DNA from: an uncultured Negativicutes bacterium
GTDB taxonomy: Bacteria; Bacillota; Negativicutes; Acidaminococcales; Acidaminococcaceae
NCBI GenBank assembly: GCA_947074185.1
Contig: CAMTOO010000001.1
Span: 12,615-76,614, forward strand
Length of the DNA: 64,000 bases
Reading direction: 5' to 3'
Shown: piece after piece, positions 1,517 through 39,632 of the stretch
How the letters are laid out: each line of letters begins with the position of its first letter
Numbering within the stretch: the first letter of the stretch is position 1
Position numbers and translations under genes: made by a program
The notes under the pieces: generated by a model
Told to the model about the DNA's origin: nothing
The model's input: the letters and a program-made list of their open reading frames with translations, nothing else
Databases searched by the model: none

Positions 1517-1534
1517 AATATCATTCAATAAAAA

Positions 1535-1568
1535 AGACAACACCTACATAAATTTGTAGATGTTGTCT
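1535..1568 (-). terminator. Hairpin terminator downstream of herA and of the pseudo-guaA 3' end
   Basis: Stem AGACAACACCTACA / TGTAGATGTTGTCT with one mismatch and a 6-nt loop. An A-run at 1530..1534 gives a U-tract on the minus strand. I saw no other strong hairpin between the herA stop (1739) and here. Confidence 0.6.
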
Positions 1569-1572
1569 CTAT

Positions 1573-1586
1573 TTTATTCCCACTCA
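1573..1586. repeat. att-like 14-bp direct repeat, distal copy (TTTATTCCCACTCA)
   Basis: Identical to 8249..8262, the stop codon and last codons of guaA on the minus strand. The minus-strand reading upstream gives ..KKP*PEWE*, a degraded echo of guaA ..KPPATIEWE*. Confidence 0.6.
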
Positions 1587-1738
1587 GGTCAAGGTTTCTT
1601 TTTCTCAACTGGCAATCTTGATTTTTCAGGGCTTTTCGTGGCTTAGTTTGCCAAATTCGCATCGTATTTTTTGAGAAGCAGATTTTATGCACTCAAATTG
1701 CACTCAGGAATACATGTATTGAACAATTACCACAATCA

Positions 1739-3595
1739 TTATTCTATATACCATTTTTCGGATATTTTTGCATTGTCACTATCTGGTTTTGGAGAGGCTT
1801 GTTCAAACTTAGTTAGAGTTGGAAGATTGATTGCTGTTCCAAATACAAGAGCATGTCCAGTTTGCAAATATGTAAGTCTATCTATCATTGCTTGATTTAT
1901 ATATGGCACCATTCGAGCAATATATTGAAGATCATCAGGATTTTGGACACGGTGAATAATGAAGTTGCTACACTGTGAAACAACCGTTTTAGACAACTCG
2001 CTTGGCCGCTGTGAAGAGATGCCCATAAGCAGACCGAACTTTCGGCCTTCCTTTGCGATGCGTTCAAAAATATTGTAACCAAGCACCCCATAAGTACTCT
2101 CGTTTCTAACAAACCTATGAGCCTCTTCTATTATAAAGTTTATCGGCATATCTGCCTTATTGTCCATGCGTTTAAGATAATCAAGCAGCAGTTTTGCAAG
2201 AACTTTAGTAACCACTTCAGCAGATGAATCATCGAGTAAACTGATGTCGATATTTACTATCTGATGCTCATCAAGAAGATTGCTTACATATGACTCAATA
2301 GTATCAAACCCTGTTTTCATTAGTATTTTTCCTTGTATTCCATCAGTTAACGCTTGAAGTCTAGTAATAAGAGTTGATGTATACTCTTGAATTCTCTGAG
2401 AACTTATACTCCCTTCATAGAAAGTCGCAAATTGAACAGCTTCAAGAAATTGCTGCATTGTATATGTCACTGTTTTTGATGCGGGAATAGACTCTGCAAT
2501 ATCATTTTTTATAAACGCTTGTACAAACTTAATGGTATTTTCTTCATCTGTAAATGAACCATAATTCATTGTAACAGCGTGTCTAAGATTAGATGATTTT
2601 GTAATCTGGGCATCCAAGTTTATTTCATTAGTTTGAAATGTAGTTAATATCCCTTTAACTTTATCAGACTTTGATGCAGAGGTATCAGAGCTATTGATAA
2701 TCCCAAGTATTGTACTGGCTAATATGTGATTTTTCACATCATCATCATGATTATCAGGGTCGAAAAAACAACGTGCAAGATCAATAGCACGTTTTAGGAT
2801 AGGAACTTGTGTTTTTTCAGTTGCATGCAACAAAATAGCCCAGTCATCCGCAGTCAGTGCCCATACAGGAATTTCCAGACGATTAGTTTGGGCGCTGTTT
2901 TCTGATGCAATCAAGAATTTTGATTGAACTTGTGGATTAACGATAGAGACTTGCGAAAATGCCTGCGCATATTCGCCGTTAGAATCAATAATGACAAACT
3001 TTGCGCCCCTTGCTGAATAATTTGTCTTCGAAAAAATCCTTTGCAATATGGTTGCAACTGTATTTGACTTACCAGCACCTGTGTTACCAAACACGGCAAA
3101 ATGAAATCCATAAAAACGGTCTATATTCACTCTAACCGAATAATCAGGGAAAATAACAGATGAACCAATCGGTAACAACTTAGCTTTCGTTAAGTGCTCA
3201 GTTTCATTTACAACCTCTTCCTCATTTGATACTTCAAGCATAGCAGTCAAGTCTTTTTTTGAAATAATATTTACTTCTGAGAAAATAAGTGGCATTTTTG
3301 AAACGCCAAAGAAAAATTGATTCGATATAATTTCACCAATCAAGTTAATATTTAGCAGGCGGTTGCTATTCGGCTTGCTCATTTGCTTACTAGTGAGCAT
3401 AGACTTTTCTTCAACACTAGTGATTTCTCCAACAATTGTGCGTCCAATGTCATAGATTGAAACATATGATCCTACCTCACCAACGAATCGAGGACCATCC
3501 ATAGTATTTACATAGTTTCCAAGGGCTTCGTACATCTCCGCAACAATACCACGTTGGTTTATAGAAACTAATTTCCCAATACTGCGACTATTCAT
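1739..3595 (-). CDS. herA: HerA-like (DUF87) ATPase, partner of the SIR2 defence protein
   Basis: Walker A is FGNTGAGKSNT and Walker B is INFIIEEAHRF. The protein is 618 aa. Its start overlaps the SIR2 stop by 8 bp, and a GGAGG lies 6 nt upstream of the ATG. Confidence 0.85.
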   Translation of the reverse strand: MNSRSIGKLVSINQRGIVAEMYEALGNYVNTMDGPRFVGEVGSYVSIYDIGRTIVGEITSVEEKSMLTSKQMSKPNSNRLLNINLIGEIISNQFFFGVSKMPLIFSEVNIISKKDLTAMLEVSNEEEVVNETEHLTKAKLLPIGSSVIFPDYSVRVNIDRFYGFHFAVFGNTGAGKSNTVATILQRIFSKTNYSARGAKFVIIDSNGEYAQAFSQVSIVNPQVQSKFLIASENSAQTNRLEIPVWALTADDWAILLHATEKTQVPILKRAIDLARCFFDPDNHDDDVKNHILASTILGIINSSDTSASKSDKVKGILTTFQTNEINLDAQITKSSNLRHAVTMNYGSFTDEENTIKFVQAFIKNDIAESIPASKTVTYTMQQFLEAVQFATFYEGSISSQRIQEYTSTLITRLQALTDGIQGKILMKTGFDTIESYVSNLLDEHQIVNIDISLLDDSSAEVVTKVLAKLLLDYLKRMDNKADMPINFIIEEAHRFVRNESTYGVLGYNIFERIAKEGRKFGLLMGISSQRPSELSKTVVSQCSNFIIHRVQNPDDLQYIARMVPYINQAMIDRLTYLQTGHALVFGTAINLPTLTKFEQASPKPDSDNAKISEKWYIE

Positions 3596-4727
3596 CGGTA
3601 ACCTCCGCTTCGAATTTCTTAATCAATTCGGTTACTGATTGCATTTGAGATCCTTCTGCCATATCAGGGTGCACTGCCGGAAGAACTGACTCAACAATAT
3701 TCTTAAAATAATGAATATTATTATCTGAGTTTATTACTGTTATGCGTGAATCATTAAGCAAAATCAACTTGTTGATATTTTCGCTTTTGCCAAACACTAC
3801 CAATCGGAAAGAGGGCACAGCCAAAGCATTCATTATAATTCGATTGATATGGTCATCGCTAAAGCTATATCCCATAACAATAAGAACACCATTTTTTTGA
3901 ACTAATTTATTCTCCATTGTTCTAAATAAGTCTGAGTAAGGTGTCATTAATGTAGTCCTATCCTTGAGCGGTGTCGGGTAAATCATTACGGTGTCGTCGT
4001 CGGAAATAGATTCATAGTCTTGTTCCCAGACCTGCTCATCTTTTCGGATCCAAGAAATGGAACCATGAATTTTCACAAGATTAAAGAAAGAAGAAATACG
4101 CTCCCACACATCACGGCTGAGATTCATATTATCCACATACATATAGCTATAACTTGTTGGAGAAAACTTCCTTTTATATGTGCCGGCAAAGCCATTGTTG
4201 TATTGAAATCCAAGTTCATCAAGTGCCATTTCGTTAAAAAGATCATAATTAGTAGTAAATATGCTAATAGGAGTTTTCCTTGTTCGCTGGGTAATCTTTG
4301 TATAAAAATCCTTATATACAGTTTTCACTTCCGCACTATTCAACCCCAAAATAATTCTTTTTCGTAGGAAACTACGTAGAATCTTAGTTTTCTTTGTGGC
4401 TTGAGCATCAACTTCAATAATTTGATTAGCTATTTGAACAGCACCTAAAGCCTCAATTAATTTTTCAAGATTTTTTTCGAAACACCCATTCATTTTTTTG
4501 CCTGCAATATCAAAGTCTGGATTTTCAGAAAAAAAGCTACTGTATATGGCAGCCATACCTGGGATTCCTGTTTCTGTACCATCAACGACATGGCTAGAAC
4601 AGCCCGCACCAATAAAGAAGCTAAGATTATCAATTTGAAGCAACTGAGCTATCTCATTGCGCAGTCCTTCCAGAGATATATTATGGTTCTCTTTTCCAAT
4701 ATAATAACAAATATTTGCGTCAGACAT
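3588..4727 (-). CDS. SIR2-family (SIR2_2) NAD-binding/NADase defence protein
   Basis: Carries FFIGAGCS (Gly-rich NAD loop), TTNYDLF and KIHGS motifs. GGAGG lies upstream of the ATG. The gene sits upstream of, and is translationally coupled to, herA. Confidence 0.85.
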   Translation of the reverse strand: MSDANICYYIGKENHNISLEGLRNEIAQLLQIDNLSFFIGAGCSSHVVDGTETGIPGMAAIYSSFFSENPDFDIAGKKMNGCFEKNLEKLIEALGAVQIANQIIEVDAQATKKTKILRSFLRKRIILGLNSAEVKTVYKDFYTKITQRTRKTPISIFTTNYDLFNEMALDELGFQYNNGFAGTYKRKFSPTSYSYMYVDNMNLSRDVWERISSFFNLVKIHGSISWIRKDEQVWEQDYESISDDDTVMIYPTPLKDRTTLMTPYSDLFRTMENKLVQKNGVLIVMGYSFSDDHINRIIMNALAVPSFRLVVFGKSENINKLILLNDSRITVINSDNNIHYFKNIVESVLPAVHPDMAEGSQMQSVTELIKKFEAEVTDE

Positions 4728-4824
4728 ATGCTACCTCCATTAATAAGTTGTTGGTGAATATGTAATATACTCATTCGCCACATGAATCTTGTCAAGCTTT
4801 TTATCGACTATGCTACTGCACTTA

Positions 4825-4833
4825 TGGTATAAT
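4825..4833 (+). promoter_or_regulatory. Extended -10 promoter candidate for the endonuclease gene
   Basis: TGGTATAAT (TGn + TATAAT at 4828..4833) lies ~35 nt upstream of RBS AAGGGAG and the ATG at 4868. There is no good -35. Confidence 0.4.
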
Positions 4834-4867
4834 AAATTATTATATCTTTAAAGGGAGTAAAGAATTT

Positions 4868-5749
4868 ATGGATTTTAGAGACATCTTAGACATTGCGAAA
4901 GACGAACTGATATCACTTGACGATAACCTTATTGATGTACTTGACATTACAAAACCTTCAACACTGGCTTACGCTGCGCAACTGGCAAAAGTTATTTCAA
5001 AATTGTCCCCGTTATTAGGCAATATGATTGAATTTTCAACCGTCGATCTGCTCAATTCTCATGATTGGCAAGGCATGGGAACATGGATACGTCAAGATCC
5101 AGGATTCCCAGATGCAGTATTTAAGAGCGAGACAATTCTCCCCAATCCAGGTATTGAAATTAAGGCATGGTTTCCTTTTGCCACAGAGATTACCGCACGG
5201 TTTAAAGATAGCGTCACCATTTTTGAGAATAACAATATTGACATGGCGCTTATTGCATGGCTACCCGAGCATGTAATATGGGGTCAGCCAAAAATAATTG
5301 ACGTGCTTGTTGTGAGTGGTAAGAGCGTCGCTGAAGCAAGAGATCGTCACTATCATCGTCCGCCCGATTACTTGGTTTTTGAGCCTGAGGATACAACTGC
5401 ACGCACAGCAAATCTGCAACAAACAAATACAAATGGTTATAAGTTTCAGACGGATAAAAGCTGTATAGGTGATGCTATCTCTGTTGTCGAATCATGGGGA
5501 GATGCAGGAAAAGAGTACAGTGTAAGTCCTACATACCAACAAATGCTGCGTACATTGCAGGGTCAATTTGTATATCGATTGGACACAAACTATGCCAAAA
5601 TTGATAGAATTGAACACTCGGACATTAAAGCATTTAAGCAAAAGGTATTAGCAACCCAGTATTATGGAATGACTATCAGGGAATGGAGTGCACTATTAAG
5701 TTCAAAAGATGATACTCGGCTCAAAAATGCACTAAGTTCCATTCTGTAA
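4868..5749 (+). CDS. Putative type II restriction endonuclease (PD-ExK)
   Basis: Shows E55 .. P81-D82 .. E97-I98-K99 (GFPDAVFKSETILPNPGIEIKAW), a PD-(D/E)XK signature. The gene is convergent with the methyltransferase gene and overlaps its 3' end by 18 bp. Confidence 0.55.
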   Translation: MDFRDILDIAKDELISLDDNLIDVLDITKPSTLAYAAQLAKVISKLSPLLGNMIEFSTVDLLNSHDWQGMGTWIRQDPGFPDAVFKSETILPNPGIEIKAWFPFATEITARFKDSVTIFENNNIDMALIAWLPEHVIWGQPKIIDVLVVSGKSVAEARDRHYHRPPDYLVFEPEDTTARTANLQQTNTNGYKFQTDKSCIGDAISVVESWGDAGKEYSVSPTYQQMLRTLQGQFVYRLDTNYAKIDRIEHSDIKAFKQKVLATQYYGMTIREWSALLSSKDDTRLKNALSSIL

Positions 5750-6718
5750 ATGTTTATCAAAACGGTCTACTGCGACCTCAAACACGTCTGAATTAATCTC
5801 CGCGCAATAGCATTGTCGCTCTAACTCCTCCGATGCAATAGCTGTTGTGCACAGACCTGCAAATGGGTCCCAAACCACATCCTTTTTTTCGGACGACATT
5901 TCTACTATACGCTTGATTAACTCCAAGGGTTTCTGGTTTAAATGTATTGCTTTTTGTTGTACTTTTAATCTCTCTTTGCCACGTAACTGTGGACACTGCC
6001 ACACATTTGTTAAACCTATTGGACAATAAAACTTTGAGCGTAGATTTGCCCATTGCTCACATGTAATTGGGACTTTCCCATCAAGAGAAAAATATGGCCT
6101 TCCACGTTTATCCCCATACTCATTTGCATATATGGATATTTTTTCAAATGCATCAGCAGGGGGCATATACCACAAGTGGCACTTTGTGAAGTATTTTCTA
6201 GTTGCAGCATTTTTCACACCACAAGCATCGTTTGTTTTTGAAAATGGCAACCCCGTTCTTGCCCATTCATATCTAAGCCATTCTTTCATCGATGTGGCTT
6301 TTCCATCTGTGTGAAAAATCGGTTTTTTAATATACTGCACACAAACTTCCGTTACCACAGGAAGGTGTCGAATTGTTTTAGTGTTTATGTTCCCGGCAAC
6401 ATGGCCCATTCCTTTGTCCCACACACAACAAGATACATATTCCCAGCCATTTTTTTCAAGGAGAGGATGCACTGTTGCCCATCCAATTTCTGTATTCCAA
6501 AACCAAAGTGTGGTAAGGGGCGACGCTGCCTTGCTCCATGCCTTTATATGAGGTTCATACCATGCACCTAAACCCTCGCTAGAAACCAAGTCCCCAGGAA
6601 AACCACTGACCCCATAAGGTCCGTCGGAAACAATTACGACTGGAGTCTTCCAACTTTCATATAAATCCAGGGCATTTCCACAAAACAGATGGATATCCCC
6701 AAAATCTTTCCTACTCAT
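5732..6718 (-). CDS. Beta-class N6A/N4C DNA methyltransferase
   Basis: An N-terminal motif IV-like VSDGPYG and a C-terminal motif I VWDPFAGLCTTA give the IV-then-I order of the beta class. Start chosen at ATG 6718, with GAGGAG 8 nt upstream. The GTG at 6727 from the ORF track abuts the SD sequence. Confidence 0.85.
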   Translation of the reverse strand: MSRKDFGDIHLFCGNALDLYESWKTPVVIVSDGPYGVSGFPGDLVSSEGLGAWYEPHIKAWSKAASPLTTLWFWNTEIGWATVHPLLEKNGWEYVSCCVWDKGMGHVAGNINTKTIRHLPVVTEVCVQYIKKPIFHTDGKATSMKEWLRYEWARTGLPFSKTNDACGVKNAATRKYFTKCHLWYMPPADAFEKISIYANEYGDKRGRPYFSLDGKVPITCEQWANLRSKFYCPIGLTNVWQCPQLRGKERLKVQQKAIHLNQKPLELIKRIVEMSSEKKDVVWDPFAGLCTTAIASEELERQCYCAEINSDVFEVAVDRFDKHLQNGT

Positions 6719-6723
6719 TAGAT

Positions 6724-6933
6724 TCACTCCTCATCCTTACAGTGAGACAATATATCCTCGACATTACAGTCAAAAAAATTACACAAGCGATTGATTATTT
6801 CTAGTGAAACCTGTTCACCTCGACCCATCTTGTCCATTGTAGATTTAGAAATATCTGCGTATGCCATTAAGTCTTTTTTGCTCATATCTCTATCAATAAG
6901 CAATTTCCATAGTGGTTTATAAGAAAAGCTCAC
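6724..6933 (-). CDS. Small XRE/Cro-type HTH protein, probable R-M controller (C protein)
   Basis: SFSYKPLWKLLIDRDMSKKDLMAYADISKSTMDKMGRGEQVSLEIINRLC is a typical HTH. Start set at GTG 6933, preceded by AGAAAGAGGTGAT (near-perfect SD) at 7-nt spacing. The ATG at 6963 lies inside the predicted promoter spacer. The stop overlaps the region just upstream of the MTase start. Confidence 0.75.
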   Translation of the reverse strand: MSFSYKPLWKLLIDRDMSKKDLMAYADISKSTMDKMGRGEQVSLEIINRLCNFFDCNVEDILSHCKDEE

Positions 6934-6953
6934 AACATCACCTCTTTCTCTTG

Positions 6954-6992
6954 ATTGTAGCATATAAGTATTGATAAGTCAATACTTATATG
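6954..6992 (-). promoter_or_regulatory. Near-consensus sigma-70 promoter overlapped by a 14-bp-arm palindrome (candidate C-box operator)
   Basis: On the minus strand: TTGACT (6982..6977), a 17-nt spacer, then TACAAT (6959..6954). The perfect inverted repeat CATATAAGTATTGA-TAAG-TCAATACTTATATG (6961..6992) covers the -35 and the spacer. Confidence 0.65.
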
Positions 6993-7124
6993 CTGTATTC
7001 GGTTCGTGTAGCCTGTTCTTCATGATTGCTAATTCGCTCCGTTCCTCGCTGTATGGTACAGCAAGCCGAAAACAAAGCGGTCCCCTTTCAATCTCAAAGC
7101 TAAAACTGCCTTGCTCGTCATCGT

Positions 7125-7352
7125 CTAAAATCTGATATGGTTATCGTTCTCCTTGTGCTTTTGATATGCTTCTTGCCGCCTTAGTCGTATGGCTTCTTTT
7201 TTGAAGGCATCCTCGTCTCGCCAGTAGAAGGTCACAATCGTTCGCAATATTTCGGCAATCAGTTTCAGCACAATAAATTTAGCGTGACAATGGGGCCACA
7301 TCGCCCTATCCATTGGGATATCTGCGTGTATTGCTCTGTATCCGCTATGCAT
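7125..7352 (-). pseudogene. Orphan 75-aa ORF, probable gene remnant
   Basis: It has no convincing RBS. A second frame stays open directly downstream (PYQILDDDEQGSFSFEIERGPLCFRLAVPYSEERSELAIMKNRLHEPNTAYKY), which suggests a frameshifted relic. The region is visibly GC-richer than its flanks. Confidence 0.3.
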
Positions 7353-7419
7353 TGCAAAAAATTCCTTAGTCGATAATCACCTCTTGTGTTATTACGCTAT
7401 AAAGAAAGCGATGGGTTGC

Positions 7420-7572
7420 CCCACCGCTTCAAATCCCTACTTCAAGGTAAGGGTTCACCTCTTGGCGGCTTTTACCGCAAATCCCTACTTCGTATTGCTA
7501 CAGGCTAGGGTTCTCCTCTTCGGCGGCTAATGCCGCAATCCCTACTTAGAAGGCAAGGGGTTTCCTCTTTCG
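7420..7572. repeat. Three tandem imperfect ~48-57-bp units, each forming two hairpins
   Basis: The core (A)AATCCCTACTT occurs at 7431, 7479 and 7537. GGGTT(C/T)(A/T)CCTCTT occurs at 7451, 7508 and 7558. CGGC-loop-(G)CCG hairpins lie at ~7465 and ~7521. CCCTAC..(G)TA(A)GGG pairing is present in each unit. Confidence 0.8.
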
Positions 7573-7721
7573 TTTATTTTATACAATTATCCTTCTTCTG
7601 TCAACAAGCTTAAAACTTCATAAAGTTAAAACCTCATTGTCTGAAAAACGGTCGTTTTTCGGACTTTTGTTTTGCTCATTTAATCAAGGGAATTTTTTAG
7701 CGCAAAAGTGTCTGTTTTCTA

Positions 7722-8166
7722 GTCTGAAAATCAAAGGCTGTTTTCTAATGGTGCATATAGAATTCCCAAACCAACTCAACTGTTTAAAATAGAAGAAGCT
7801 CTCGGCTTGAATTCAGGTAGCCTATCTAATCCTCCTTTACGAAATATATCTATCACAACAGCAGGCGAAGTAATGTCTCTACTTTTTATGCTTGAAGACC
7901 AAGGTTGCTTGATGTTCCAGTGTGAACAGGATACAGAAGGCAAAGCAATTCCTTGCACAACAAGTGCTAAATTCTATAGACAATCAGTAAATTGCGTTCT
8001 GGACGAGTGGATACAGTACAAACTTGGACAGACCGCAAGGGCAGCTTTACTTGATAACTACAGTGACGAAGAACAAGAACGAATGCAAGTTTCAGAACTG
8101 AGCTTAGAAGAGGCAGAAAAGCAGCGGCTAATGAGTAGCCAAGTACCCATAAAAAAGGAACAATGA
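7722..8166 (+). pseudogene. 5'-truncated/degenerate XRE-family regulator remnant
   Basis: The open frame starts right after a TAG with ..NGAYRIPKPTQLFKIEEALGL.., the C-terminal part of an HTH_3 motif. The first HTH helices and a start/RBS are missing, and only fragments in another frame are seen upstream. Confidence 0.4.
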
Positions 8167-8197
8167 TAATATTGCACTCATTTTGTACTCAACAGCA

Positions 8198-8240
8198 TAA
8201 AAAAGAGCCGCAAACCCTTGTAAATTCAGGGTTTACGGCT
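8198..8240 (-). terminator. guaA rho-independent terminator (bidirectional shape)
   Basis: On the minus strand: AGCCGTAAACCCT-loop-AGGGTTTGCGGCT followed by CTTTTTT. Confidence 0.8.
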
Positions 8241-8248
8241 TTGTTTTG

Positions 8249-8262
8249 TTTATTCCCACTCA
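8249..8262. repeat. att-like 14-bp direct repeat, guaA-proximal copy
   Basis: TTTATTCCCACTCA is the reverse complement of ..GAG TGG GAA TAA (E-W-E-stop of guaA) plus one nt. It is identical to 1573..1586. Confidence 0.6.
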
Positions 8263-9788
8263 ATAGTTGCTGGTGGTTTTGATGTTATGTCGTATACAAT
8301 ACGGTTTACGCCTTGTACTTCGTTTACGATGCGGCGACTAATTTGATCAAGTACTCCGTATGGAATATGAGCCCAATCAGAAGTCATTCCGTCGCTACTT
8401 GTTACCGCACGTAATGCGATTGTGTGGCAATATGTACGTCCGTCACCCATTACTCCTACAGAGCTAATGTTTGGTAGGCATGCAAAGTATTGCCAGATTT
8501 TACGTTCAAGTCCTGCATTTGCAATTTCTTCTCTAAATATTGCATCTGCTTCTCTTGTAATTTCTAATTTTTCTGGTGTTACTTCACCAAGTACACGAAT
8601 TGCAAGTCCTGGGCCTGGGAATGGTTGGCGCCATACTAAATCAGATGGGATGCCAAGTTCTTCGCCTACTGCACGTACTTCATCTTTAAATAATTCTCTT
8701 AGTGGTTCGATTAAAGATAAGTCCATATCTTCAGGAAGTCCGCCTACGTTGTGATGGCTTTTGATAACAGCACTTGTGCTTGTTCCGCTTTCTACAACGT
8801 CTGGGTAAATTGTTCCTTGTACAAGATAATCTACATGTCCAATTTTATTAGATTCTTCTTCAAATACTCTAATAAATTCTTCGCCGATAATTTTACGTTT
8901 TCTTTCAGGGTCTGATACACCTGCAAGTTTACCAAGGAATCTATCTGCTGCATTAACACGAATAAGATTCATGTCAAATTTTTCTCTAAAAATTGCTTCT
9001 ACTTGATCACCTTCGTCTTTACGTAATAAACCGTGATCTACGAATACGCAAGTTAGTTGTTTGCCTATAGCTTGGTGTACCATTACCGCTGCTACAGAAG
9101 AGTCTACGCCGCCACTAAGTGCGCATAAAACTTTTTTATCGCCAACTTGTTCTTTGATTTCTTCGATTTTGCTTTGGGCAAAGGATTTCATTGTCCAATC
9201 CCCTTTTAAACCACAAATTGCGAAAAGGAAGTTGTGAAGCATCTTTTTACCAAAAGGAGTATGTTCTACTTCTGGATGGAATTGTACGCCATAAAGTTTA
9301 CGGTCGTCATTAATCATTGCTGCCACTGGACATTCGGAAGTTGCAGATACAACTTTAAATCCTTCTGGTACAGTTGCTACGAAATCAGTGTGGCTCATCC
9401 AGCAAATATTATTTTCTTCTAAGCCTCTGAATAATTCGCAATCTTGTAAAACAATGGAAGTTTTGCCATATTCACGTACATCTGCGCTTTGCACTTTACC
9501 ACCTAGGGTTTGTGCCATAAATTGATGTCCGTAGCAAATACCAAGCACTGGTACTCCAAGTTCAAATACTCCTGCATCTACTTTTGGAGTGTCGTCACCG
9601 TATACGCTTGCTGGTCCACCTGTGAAAATAATCGCAGCTGGATTTTTTTCTTTTATTTGCTCTAAAGTGTAGTTATAAGGAACTATTTCGCAATAAACCC
9701 CATGTTCTCTTACACGTCTAGCAATAAGCTGATTATATTGTCCACCAAAGTCAATGACTAGCACCAATTCATGTGCTTCTTTTTCCAT
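8250..9788 (-). CDS. guaA: GMP synthase (glutamine-hydrolysing)
   Basis: 512 aa with a GATase domain (GICYGHQ, HPE), ATP-PPase SGGVDSS and the C-terminal ..PPATIEWE. Confidence 0.97.
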
Positions 9789-36402: not shown

Positions 36403-36478
36403 TGGTGGGCACTGACGGGATCGAACCGCCGACATTCTGCTTGTAAGGCAGACGCTCTCCCAGCTGAGCTAAGCGCCC
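36403..36478 (-). tRNA. tRNA-Val (anticodon TAC), CCA encoded
   Basis: Manual cloverleaf: GGGCGCT acceptor stem, anticodon loop CTTACAA, T-loop GGTTCGATCC. Confidence 0.9.
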
Positions 36479-36481
36479 GTA

Positions 36482-36556
36482 TGGTGACCGGTAGGGGAAT
36501 CGAACCCCTGATACCGCCGTGAAAGGGCGGTGTCTTAACCGCTTGACCAACCGGCC
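36482..36556 (-). tRNA. tRNA-Glu (anticodon TTC), CCA encoded
   Basis: GGCCGGTTGGTCAAGCGGTTAAGACAC.., anticodon loop CTTTCAC. Confidence 0.9.
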
Positions 36557-36558
36557 AT

Positions 36559-36634
36559 TGGCTCCTCGAGTAGGACTCGAACCTACAACAACTCGGTTAA
36601 CAGCCGAGTGCTCTACCGATTGAGCTATCGAGGA
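36559..36634 (-). tRNA. tRNA-Asn (anticodon GTT), CCA encoded
   Basis: TCCTCGA acceptor stem, anticodon loop CTGTTAA, T-loop GGTTCGAGTCC. Confidence 0.9.
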
Positions 36635-36659
36635 ATACGTCAAAACGACTACGAAAGTT

Positions 36660-36688
36660 ATTATAGTATAAACACAATTCTTTGTCAA
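36660..36688 (-). promoter_or_regulatory. Consensus sigma-70 promoter of the tRNA operon
   Basis: On the minus strand: TTGACA, a 17-nt spacer, then TATAAT, ~25 nt upstream of tRNA-Asn. Confidence 0.8.
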
Positions 36689-36734
36689 CATTATTTTTCA
36701 AAAAATCTTTTTATACCGTTTTGCCCCTCGATTT

Positions 36735-37199
36735 TTACTTGCGAACTTTCACTACAATTTTTTGAACAGACTCTTTATTTTCTCCTATTTTACAGCCTGG
36801 ACGATGATACTCCCAAGGAAAGAAAATGGCAAACACTTTTTGTCCTAAAACAACCTGGTTTTGTTCAGAAAAATCTTCATAAAATAGTAAATCTCTTTCT
36901 TCTGCGTAATCTTCCACTAATTTTAAATTTTTAATATCTTCATCATAATATATTATTTCAGAACCTTTATTCAAATACTGAATATCAATATATTCAACAT
37001 GTCTTTCTGGCTTTTTAGCCTCAGCGGCCTCGGTATCGTAAGTATTTACTATAGCAAATACATCTTTACCTTTTATTTCATAAGTGCCATTTTCCATATT
37101 AGAAAAATCTGTTTCTAATATGTACTTTAGTCCTAATTGCAAGTTTTCACTTAAATATGGTAAAAGCTTATGAATTTCATTCTTTTTTCCACTTATCAT
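36735..37199 (-). CDS. YhcH/YjgK/YiaL (DUF386) family protein
   Basis: Family-typical ..PERHVEYIDIQY.. Start at ATG 37199, with GGGGGA 8 nt upstream. Confidence 0.7.
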   Translation of the reverse strand: MISGKKNEIHKLLPYLSENLQLGLKYILETDFSNMENGTYEIKGKDVFAIVNTYDTEAAEAKKPERHVEYIDIQYLNKGSEIIYYDEDIKNLKLVEDYAEERDLLFYEDFSEQNQVVLGQKVFAIFFPWEYHRPGCKIGENKESVQKIVVKVRK

Positions 37200-37323
37200 A
37201 AGAGTTTCCCCCTTTTTGTCTTTATAAAAGCATATCATAAAGTTATCTTAAAATAAATATCCTTTACAAAATTTCTTCCTTTGGGTAAAATTAGGAGTAT
37301 ATTTTTAATGAAAGAGGTTTACC

Positions 37324-38880
37324 ATGAGTTATTTAAACGTTACTAATGTTAGCCATTCCTTTGGCGGCAGACAAATTCTTGAAAATGTTTCTTTCAAGTT
37401 ATTAAAAGGAGAACACGTTGGTCTTGTAGGCGCTAATGGCGAAGGCAAATCCAGCTTCTTAAATATTGTTACAGGTAATCTTTTACCAGATGATGGTAAA
37501 GTAGAATGGCCTGGTAAAGTTACTGTTGGTTATTTAGATCAACAAAGCACTTTAGAAAAAGGCATGACTATCCGCGAAGTGCTTCACACTGCTTTCAATG
37601 CTGATTTTGAAGCAGAACAAGAAATGCTTACAATTTATGATAAGATGGAGTCCGCTACACCTGAAGAATTAGATAAAATGATGGTTAAAGTTGGCGAAAT
37701 ACAGTCAGAATTAGAAAGCAGCGGTTTCTATTCTCTTGATAGTAAAATAGAAGAATTTGCTAACGGACTTGGACTTGGTGACATTGGTCTAGATAAAGAT
37801 GTTGCTGAACTTTCTGGTGGACAACGCAGCAAAGTGCTTTTAACAAAACTTTTATTACAAAATGCTTCTATTCTTCTTTTAGACGAACCTACAAACTATC
37901 TTGATGTTGAACACATCGAATGGCTTACTAAGTTCTTGCAAAACTACGAAAATGCATTTATCTTAATTTCTCATGATATTGCATTTTTAAATAATGTTGT
38001 AAATGTTATTTATCACTTAGAAAACTGTGAACTTACTCGTTATTCGGGTGATTATGATAAATTCCAAGAGCTTTACGCTATCTATAAATCACAAAAAGAA
38101 AGTGCTTATGAACGCCAACAACAAGAAGTTGCTAAACTAGAAGATTTTATTGCGCGTAATAAAGCACGTGTTGCTACGACCGGTATGGCACGTAGTAGAC
38201 AAAAGAAACTAGATAAAATGGATATTATTGAAAAACCAAGGGAAAAACTTAAACCAACCTTTAAGTTTAACGAAGCTCGCACCCCTAGTCGTTTCATTGT
38301 ACAAGCAAAAGATTTAGTTTTAGGCTATGATTCTCCTCTTACTAAACCTGTAAGTTTCAACATTGAACGTGGCGAAAAAATCGCTATTCGTGGTGTAAAC
38401 GGGCTTGGTAAAACAACTCTTTTAAAAACTATTTTAGGTAAAATAAAACCTATCGAAGGTAATGTAGAATTAGGCGATTTTGTTGAACCTGGTTATTTCG
38501 AACAAGAAGAACGTGAGAAAAACCAAAATACTGCTTTAGATGATGTTTGGAACGAATATCCTGGCATGAACAACTATGAAGTGCGTGCAGCGCTTGCTGG
38601 TTGTGGTTTGACTAACGACCACATTACTAGTAAAGTTTTCGTTCTTAGTGGTGGCGAAGCAGCAAAAGTCCGTCTTTGCAAACTTATGCTAAAGCAAATT
38701 AACTGGCTAGTTTTAGATGAACCTACAAACCATTTAGATGTGGATGCTAAAGAAGAATTAAAGCGTGCTTTAAAAGATTTCAAAGGCACTATTTTGCTTG
38801 TTTCCCATGAACCTGAATTCTATGAAGGTCTTGTTTCAACTGTTTGGAATATCGAAGACTGGACAACTAAAATTATTTAA
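37324..38880 (+). CDS. ABC-F family ATPase (two ABC cassettes, no TM domain)
   Basis: GANGEGKS and GVNGLGKT Walker A motifs, LSGGQ and LSGGE signatures, and an inter-domain linker. Confidence 0.9.
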   Translation: MSYLNVTNVSHSFGGRQILENVSFKLLKGEHVGLVGANGEGKSSFLNIVTGNLLPDDGKVEWPGKVTVGYLDQQSTLEKGMTIREVLHTAFNADFEAEQEMLTIYDKMESATPEELDKMMVKVGEIQSELESSGFYSLDSKIEEFANGLGLGDIGLDKDVAELSGGQRSKVLLTKLLLQNASILLLDEPTNYLDVEHIEWLTKFLQNYENAFILISHDIAFLNNVVNVIYHLENCELTRYSGDYDKFQELYAIYKSQKESAYERQQQEVAKLEDFIARNKARVATTGMARSRQKKLDKMDIIEKPREKLKPTFKFNEARTPSRFIVQAKDLVLGYDSPLTKPVSFNIERGEKIAIRGVNGLGKTTLLKTILGKIKPIEGNVELGDFVEPGYFEQEEREKNQNTALDDVWNEYPGMNNYEVRAALAGCGLTNDHITSKVFVLSGGEAAKVRLCKLMLKQINWLVLDEPTNHLDVDAKEELKRALKDFKGTILLVSHEPEFYEGLVSTVWNIEDWTTKII

Positions 38881-38881
38881 T

Positions 38882-38921
38882 AAAAAACCTTTCAACACTA
38901 TTAATGTTGAAAGGTTTTTTT
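38882..38921. terminator. Bidirectional terminator
   Basis: AAAAACCTTTCAACA-loop-TGTTGAAAGGTTTTT between convergent genes. Confidence 0.8.
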
Positions 38922-38924
38922 ATG

Positions 38925-39632
38925 CTAAAGTTTAATATTTTGCAACCATTTTTCAAATTCTTGATCTGGGCTTGGGTATTTACTACGTTCTTCTGCAGTA
39001 ATTGTTAATTTTTCACCTTTACCATTTATTATATCAGCACCTTCGATGCCTCTGCGATCTAATGAAACTCCTGGAATGACTTTTGCATTAGGCGCTGCTT
39101 TAGCTATGTCATCAAAATAATTAGCTGCGCCAAATCCTGCATGACTACAGAATGGAGCAATAATTTTTCCATCTAGTTTTGCCTCGCTAAGAAATGTTGC
39201 TACTGGTGGTGCCATTGATCCCCACCAAATTGGTGAACCTAAAAATATTACATCATATTTAGAAAGATCAGGAACTGGATTTTTTAAAGCTGGTTTAAAT
39301 CCATTTCTAACTTCTTGACGCCCTTGAGCAGAAACTGCAGCATAATCGTTACCATAAGCAACTGCTGGTCCAATTACATATACATCTCCACCTACTTTAG
39401 CTCGCAATGTTTGTGCAGTGATTATATTGTTTCCACTATAAGAAAAATATGCTATCAAAACTTTTTTCCCAGCTAAACCTGAATATTTGTCTGTGCTTCC
39501 TGCAGAAGGTGATGCTGTAGTTGTAGTAGTTACTGCAGAACTTTCTACTTTTTGAATATTGCCTTTATTACCACAGCCGATTATCATTATTGCTAAAATT
39601 AAAATACCTAAACTAAGCCATATTTTTTTCAT
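38925..39632 (-). CDS. Flavodoxin-like lipoprotein
   Basis: Lipobox IIGCG, and a flavodoxin_4-like core (LIAYFSYSGN..GSPIWWG). Confidence 0.7.
   Translation of the reverse strand: MKKIWLSLGILILAIMIIGCGNKGNIQKVESSAVTTTTTASPSAGSTDKYSGLAGKKVLIAYFSYSGNNIITAQTLRAKVGGDVYVIGPAVAYGNDYAAVSAQGRQEVRNGFKPALKNPVPDLSKYDVIFLGSPIWWGSMAPPVATFLSEAKLDGKIIAPFCSHAGFGAANYFDDIAKAAPNAKVIPGVSLDRRGIEGADIINGKGEKLTITAEERSKYPSPDQEFEKWLQNIKL

Follow-up and report, generated by a model that had tools for sequence, protein, structure and literature searches.

What brought a 6.7-kb block of accessory genes to the 3' end of guaA, the gene for GMP synthase, in a stretch of DNA that encodes no recombinase? The question is raised by a locus in an uncultured Negativicutes bacterium of the family Acidaminococcaceae (assembly GCA_947074185.1, contig CAMTOO010000001.1, positions 12,615 to 76,614), whose 64,000 nucleotides were analysed as a whole and are called the window here; coordinates and strands refer to it unless another locus is named. 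A preliminary description, made from the letters of the window alone, had pointed to a 14-bp word at the end of guaA that occurs again 6.7 kb away, and had read the enclosed segment, with its defence genes, as the product of site-specific integration into the 3' end of the gene. The analysis reported here leads us to regard the segment from 1573 to 8262 as very probably the remnant of a guaA-specific integrative and mobilizable element (IME), of the type called a cis-mobilizable element (CIME), with defence genes as its cargo.

Documented targets of IMEs and genomic islands include the 3' end of guaA (PMC5357655, PMC5704250). It is used in streptococci by elements of the Tyr_3 family (PMC5357655) and in Trueperella pyogenes by ATE-1 (PMC5704250), and further documented users are a Brucella island and GIsul2. 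In GIsul2, an island of Proteobacteria, GAGTGGGA has been shown experimentally to be the crossover word in guaA, and an integrase-less CR2-sul2 unit bounded by attachment (att) sites is moved by the integrase of the island (PMC9376610). CIMEs, as described for streptococcal elements, retain both junction sites, attL and attR, and have lost the genes for integration and transfer (PMC5704250; Pavlovic et al. 2004, cited there).

The guaA Word and Its Second Copy

guaA lies intact on the minus strand at 8250–9788, as supported by the Pfam families GATase and GMP_synt_C, and its product is 85–86% identical in amino acid sequence to the proteins of Phascolarctobacterium and other Acidaminococcaceae, including related metagenome-assembled genomes. 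Its last three codons and stop make up one copy of the repeated word, TTTATTCCCACTCA, at 8249–8262, in agreement with the E-W-E-stop end given in the preliminary description. There are exactly two copies of the word in the window, both on the plus strand; the distal copy lies at 1573–1586, where the minus strand gives the guaA E-W-E-stop word TGAGTGGGAATAAA, and it contains GAGTGGGA. No third copy is found in the window even when one mismatch is allowed. We refer to the copy at guaA as the attL core and to the distal copy as the attR core. Identity between the flanks of the two copies is limited to exactly these 14 bp on either side. The degraded echo of guaA (KKP-stop-PEWE-stop) that had been seen at the distal copy shows no above-chance similarity past them, and it was dropped as evidence.

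The earlier argument that a 14-mer should hardly recur by chance, 4^14 being so large, overstates the case. Direct repeats of 14 bp or longer number 68 in the window; a few arise within an internally repetitive zinc-ribbon gene, and the others are scattered. When the same test is applied to all 49 larger genes, six prove to have a repeated 14-mer at the stop codon. Other evidence must therefore decide. These counts, along with the separate origins of the cargo modules and the steps in GC content, can be cited for the view that the two copies are a chance pair in a recombination-driven defence hot spot, where genes have accumulated by homologous recombination in the flanks or by illegitimate events. 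We return to this view once the ends of the segment have been described.

Elements at guaA in Other Bacillota

If integration produced the repeat, the same layout might be expected at guaA elsewhere. The comparison set consisted of 80 guaA loci of other Bacillota (designated, like all further comparison loci, by L numbers), with 569 kb downstream and 612 kb upstream of the gene, and was searched with a degenerate 12-mer for the EWE-stop word. In the same orientation the word recurs nine times downstream of guaA and not once upstream, while its reverse complement has no occurrence downstream and one upstream. The second copies are found at distances of 1.4–7.8 kb, and here, too, only about 12–16 bp are identical. 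The guaA core word is duplicated in L036, L053, L057, L058, L065, and L068; L052 was discarded as a true repeat case on account of its poor match.

In L036 (Acidaminococcus intestini) and L057 an intact mobilizable element lies between the repeats, and L008 carries an element of the same type that is cut by the end of the contig. The order in L008 and L036 is a helix-turn-helix (HTH) regulator divergent from the next genes, a small Xis-like gene, a tyrosine integrase, a NikA-like gene, AAA_25, a Mob_Pre relaxase, and cargo. L057 follows this plan as far as its open reading frames (ORFs) were scanned, with no relaxase identified there. The integrases of all three combine the domains Arm-DNA-bind_4, SAM_3, and Phage_integrase. 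As cargo, L036 has an EF-G-like GTPase of the ribosomal-protection type and L057 an AAA_21 ATPase. In L099 and L103, guaA is followed by a terminator, the short words TGAGTGCA/TGAGTACA, an HTH regulator, a Xis-like gene of 62 amino acids, and a tyrosine integrase. The integrase of L103 is intact, with Arm-DNA-bind_4, SAM_3, and Phage_integrase domains, and precedes a NikA-like gene, RepA_N, and further genes; that of L099 is a 298-amino-acid fragment ended by the contig end.

These relatives also bear on the kind of element from which the cassette could derive. The guaA 3' end also serves as a target for some pathogenicity islands of staphylococci, and in its small size the cassette is comparable to them, as would suit the remnant of a phage satellite, akin to phage-inducible chromosomal islands (PICIs) or Staphylococcus aureus pathogenicity islands (SaPIs), rather than of a conjugatively mobilizable element. 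The intact relatives, however, have neither packaging nor primase modules; the genes they bear are NikA-like, Mob_Pre relaxase, AAA_25, or RepA_N genes. In the cassette itself there is nothing phage-like, and the combination of an integrase with primase or replication genes and with interference or packaging genes is not present. A satellite origin is thus extremely improbable in our judgement, and it is the guaA IMEs with which the ends of the cassette are compared below.

Arm-Type Sites and Terminators

For integrases whose N-terminal domain binds arm sites, paired repeats at both ends are the classical arm-type layout. Each intact element at guaA carries an element-specific pair of 7–8-mers with an 11–12-nt period at two places, one about 55–80 nt past the guaA stop, beyond the element-borne terminator, and the other about 100–125 nt inside the distal core. 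The words themselves differ: TGATACT serves in L036 and L008, TGATATTA in L057 and L053, and TGACTCCA in L068. In the window, a minus-strand pair at 8173–8191, with TGCACTCA at 8173 and TGTACTCA at 8184, lies 57 nt from the attL core, and a second minus-strand pair at 1688–1706, with TGCACTCA at both 1688 and 1699 (TGAGTGCA when read on the minus strand), lies 101 nt from the attR core. Both pairs have an 11-nt period. TGCACTCA has only seven copies in the 64 kb, and 8-mer pairs at 11–12-nt spacing occur at only about ten loci in the window. Ungapped alignments place the arms and core of the window in register with those of L008, L036, and L057 on the attL side (alignment A1) and with those of L036, L057, L053, and L068 on the attR side (alignment A2). 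L099 and L103 have the very arm words of the window's attL, TGAGTGCA and TGAGTACA, at the same place. Judged by their position and spacing, the 8-mer pairs of the window are putative arm-type integrase sites.

The arm pair in the form TGAGTGCA-N3-TGAGTGCA is also present in 12 unrelated metagenome contigs (L081–L092), in several of which it lies about 100–170 nt from apparent tRNA or tmRNA 3' ends. Integrative elements with different target sites thus seem to use the TGAGTGCA arm word as well. The words predicted for the free element, attP (CTTTGTTTTG-TTTATTCCCACTCA-GGTCAAGGTTTC), and for the empty site, attB (GTTGTCTCTAT-TTTATTCCCACTCA-ATAGTTGCTGG), are absent from viral contigs, a collection that is uninformative on this point.

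As the preliminary description had it, a strong hairpin lies on the low-coordinate side of each copy of the word, and both hairpins have a T-run on the minus strand. The one at 8199–8247 is an inverted repeat on the minus strand with a fold of −22.7 kcal/mol (z −3.9); it is borne by the element and now terminates guaA, and similar hairpins are found at the equivalent place in L099, L103, L036, and L008. The hairpin just outside the attR core (1533–1570, minus strand) has a 16-pair stem and a fold of −23.7 kcal/mol (z −6.4), and it was detected by a terminator scan too. Its position suggests that it was the original terminator of guaA, that is, the B' side of the chromosomal site, and it works in both directions, serving the zinc-ribbon gene beyond it as well.

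A Truncated Regulator and the Missing Mobility Genes

Between the attL arms and the defence genes, the HTH regulator gene of the element survives as a 5'-truncated pseudogene on the plus strand at 7759–8166 (ORF 7723–8166), which in a tblastn search is 55% identical to the regulator of L099 (E 5e-48). It corresponds to residues 56–187 of the intact protein. The HTH motif is gone, and homology ends near 7755. A database search gives intact HTH_3 proteins of 175–191 amino acids that are 54–55% identical to the remnant, the nearest being P0243 and P0244 in L099 and L103, and pairwise comparison with the guaA-proximal regulators of L008 and L057 gives E values of 9e-6 and 6e-7, respectively. The remnant is convergent with guaA, as the regulators of intact elements are.

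A chance pair of 14-mers would leave unexplained why arm pairs stand in register at both ends of the segment, why a regulator remnant occupies the canonical position, and why the layout recurs downstream of guaA in other genomes at nine against zero. The arms and the remnant effectively exclude it, and we would give it very little credence. Integration, as the preliminary description had proposed, is the reading we adopt, because the arm-type repeats are in register, the guaA-proximal regulator is present in truncated form, and the layout is recurrent in Bacillota; the two copies of the word are then the cores of attL and attR.

The genes that would have carried out this integration are missing. 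Searches by tblastn with five integrases of the family and with Xis found no recombinase between the repeats or in the whole 64 kb (best E 0.37), and Pfam scans found no integrase, excisionase, relaxase, or NikA-like domain in any ORF of the cassette. Domain scans and tblastn thus bear out the earlier observation that no recombinase lies between the repeats. In the region 6960–7760, no remnant of int or xis was found by tblastx, blastn, or tblastn or by Pfam scans of the fragments. Where intact elements have xis and int, the cassette has an orphan ORF of 75 amino acids (7125–7352, minus strand) that belongs to no Pfam family and has one dubious match among 1.84 billion representatives. It is probably a non-functional filler.

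Inserts without an Integrase

The loss of the integrase is not peculiar to the window. Of the approximately eight repeat-bounded inserts at guaA in other genomes, five lack an integrase (L053, L058, L065, L068, and L069; 1.6–6.4 kb). L053 carries a Schlafen-type helicase and a GNAT acetyltransferase, L065 a chemoreceptor, L068 AbiEii, and L069 an AlbA_2/HATPase_c_4 protein, and no family was found for the contents of L058; as a group, their cargo can also be summed up as including Schlafen/AlbA_2 proteins. L053 shares its arm words and attR-side sequence with L057, which bears an integrase.

The decayed cassette itself also occurs beyond its source genome, as follows from the short contigs L098, L104, and L105 of three other samples (SRR7610131, ERZ14021412, and ERZ14023113), which are 99–100% identical to the window at 7595–8585 and 6189–7230.

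Flanks of the Cassette

On the far side of the attR core and its hairpin lies the zinc-ribbon gene (228–1490), which encodes four DUF4379 treble-clef repeats and a Vsr/DUF559-like nuclease domain and has a GC content of 26–34%. ORF 13–207 shares 18–20-nt words with it and is thus a fragment of a paralogue. A DUF4379 protein of 470 amino acids is encoded directly after the integrase of SIR2-HerA-bearing islands in L093 (20302–21714) and L094 (16672–18084). Neither the zinc-ribbon gene nor any gene of the cassette has a homologue downstream of guaA in the 80 relatives.

The preliminary description had left three options for the segment: a decayed element, a CIME-like module, or one unit of a tandem accretion whose integrase lies left of the window. 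Under the last, the word at 1573–1586 would be an internal att site of a larger island, with the integrase and a further core beyond position 1. Such accretion is known from the literature, and the accessory look of the left flank, with its low GC content, DUF4379 and Vsr-like gene, and paralogue fragment, speaks for it, as does the absence of zinc-ribbon homologues downstream of guaA in the relatives. Yet in positions 1–1572, a left flank of only 1.5 kb, there is no third core (as a 12-mer with up to two mismatches) and no further arm word, and the distal core is adjoined by a strong terminator at normal guaA-like spacing, as would be expected of the original chromosomal side. We consider accretion unlikely, while keeping it as the main rival, one that is compatible with integration at guaA; the first two options, a decayed and CIME-like element, are favoured.

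On the other side, the guaA neighbourhood differs between genera. In Phascolarctobacterium faecium (L001, 15655–18129), guaA is directly followed by a gene of 518 amino acids, a gene of about 160 amino acids, and a tRNA-Asn-Glu-Val block. In the window, this block is found at 36403–39632, about 27 kb away on the opposite side of guaA. The guaA 3' junction is therefore a synteny breakpoint between genera, and distant relatives provide no empty site. Both guaA and the 542-amino-acid ORF that neighbours it, a putative groEL, assign the window to the Acidaminococcaceae.

Defence Cargo and Remaining Contents

The contents of the cassette are as the preliminary description had listed them: a SIR2-HerA pair, a restriction-modification (R-M) unit with a controller (C) gene, decayed ORFs, and GC-richer repeats, all of an accessory kind. 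The genes for the HerA ATPase (1739–3595; Pfam DUF87, PADLOC HerA E 3e-174) and the SIR2 effector (3588–4727; Pfam SIR2_2, PADLOC SIR2 E 9e-96) are adjacent on the minus strand and form one operon with an overlap of 8 nt, as in SIR2-HerA systems. By this gene content the pair is a predicted anti-phage system, of which NAD+ depletion would be expected. The operon (1740–4741) is 79–80% identical at the nucleotide level to operons of Clostridia (L093–L097), with 87% amino acid identity for HerA. In Caproiciproducens sp. CPB-2 the homologous operon is carried by a conjugative element; another lies in an integrase-bearing defence island whose Pfam families (DUF499, DUF1156, PLD + SNF2 helicase) we read as DISARM-like. 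The homology to Clostridia stops exactly at the borders of the operon, which suggests that the two genes are swapped between mobile elements as a unit.

The R-M unit comprises a type II restriction endonuclease on the plus strand (4868–5749; PADLOC REase_II E 8e-42) and, on the minus strand, an N6/N4 DNA methyltransferase (5732–6727; Pfam N6_N4_Mtase E 3e-22, PADLOC MTase_II 1e-22) and the controller gene (6724–6963; Pfam HTH_26 E 3e-18), which together with the palindrome at its start spans 6724–6994. This palindrome is a perfect 16-nt inverted repeat (AGCATATAAGTATTGA/TCAATACTTATATGCT, 6959–6994) over the start of the C gene and a promoter-like site, and it is likely to be the C-box operator of the unit. 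An endonuclease, a methyltransferase, and a small HTH controller preceded by a palindrome are the composition of a C-controlled type II R-M system, in which the palindrome would act as the operator.

Between the controller gene and the regulator remnant, three tandem GC-rich units of 50–57 nt (7400–7570) were recognized by repeat and inverted-repeat analysis. Each consists of a hairpin of the CCCTAC/GTAGGG type and a GCGGC/GCCGC hairpin, and the units lie downstream of a near-consensus promoter-like site (7604–7576, minus strand) and upstream of the 75-amino-acid ORF. They match no Rfam family and have no copy among 97 comparison loci. For the wider region 6960–8250, the plasmid collection gave no match and Rfam only noise below threshold.

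Discussion

The segment 1573–8262 is inserted in the terminal codons of guaA and duplicates a core that contains GAGTGGGA. It is bounded by attL and attR, each with a 14-bp core and paired arm repeats, and the genes for integration and transfer are gone according to domain scans and tblastn. An IME proper would bring its own integrase and excision module and a relaxase or an oriT or both. The segment has neither the module nor a relaxase, and no oriT is identifiable in it. Because attL and attR have been kept while integrase, excisionase, and relaxase have been lost, we assign the segment to the CIMEs. No new mechanism is called for: CIMEs, the decay of IMEs, and the targeting of guaA are all established.

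From these features we infer the following order of events. A tyrosine integrase with an N-terminal arm-binding domain would have recombined the attP of an element with the E-W-E-stop word of guaA (TGAGTGGGAATAAA). The resulting attL would have consisted of the core at 8249–8262, the terminator that the element brought along, and a pair of arm sites, and the attR of two arm sites, a spacer of about 100 nt, and the core at 1573–1586, with the guaA terminator displaced to 1533–1570. A later internal deletion or replacement would then have cost the element xis, int, its mobilization genes, and the 5' portion of the regulator gene, but neither the defence cargo nor any part of the two att sites. 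The cassette would now be unable to move alone; with a cognate integrase supplied in trans, its excision would be possible in principle, and so would its use as a landing site.

Several observations weigh against this account. The 14-bp identity taken alone is not significant. The loss of the integrase has to be deduced from the layout, as no trace of int or xis is detectable. None of the 12 contigs retrieved from metagenomes with the window's arm pair has it at guaA. The left flank is doubtful, since the low GC content and accessory-type domains of the zinc-ribbon gene mean that the island may extend left of the window. The closest relatives have other gene content downstream of guaA, and in the protein collection the species has just one genome (one 100% match, the next best at 86%), so that neither an empty site nor an excised circle is open to comparison.

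In its general plan the cassette resembles known CIMEs, which likewise have attL and attR at the 3' end of a housekeeping gene, have lost the genes for integration and transfer, and have kept their cargo. It departs from them in its host, a member of the Acidaminococcaceae (Negativicutes), in its target, guaA, and in its cargo of SIR2-HerA and a C-controlled type II R-M system. With the guaA IMEs (L036, L008, L057, L099, and L103) it shares the target word, the order of core, terminator, two arms, and divergent HTH regulator, and the geometry of attR; with L099 and L103 even the arm words are identical. Unlike these elements, it has no xis, int, NikA-like gene, relaxase, or replication gene, and its regulator is truncated. 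The likeness to ATE-1 is one of target site as described in the literature. GIsul2 and its CR2-sul2 unit are comparable in the insertion at the 3' end of guaA, in the presence of GAGTGGGA within the core, and in the occurrence of an att-bounded unit without an integrase. GIsul2, however, belongs to another phylum and carries resistance rather than defence cargo.

The comparison with other genomes allows a broader and more speculative proposal, namely that the cassette is not defunct but one of a population of integrase-less defence cassettes with intact core and arms (TGAGTRCA) that are moved in trans by co-circulating guaA IMEs of the L099/L103 type. We hold this to be unlikely. If it were true, guaA would serve Bacillota as a common docking site where immunity modules without a recombinase can be exchanged.

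For the organism itself, a poorly sampled gut Negativicute, the finding fixes the limits of a defence island to the base pair and explains the location of the island. In annotation, a second copy of GAGTGGGAATAA and paired arm repeats downstream of guaA provide a check for inserts of this kind. For the wider group, the guaA E-W-E-stop word that contains GAGTGGGA is an attachment site of elements in Negativicutes and Clostridia, as it is in Proteobacteria according to the literature, and integrase-less derivatives with defence or toxin-antitoxin cargo are common at this site.

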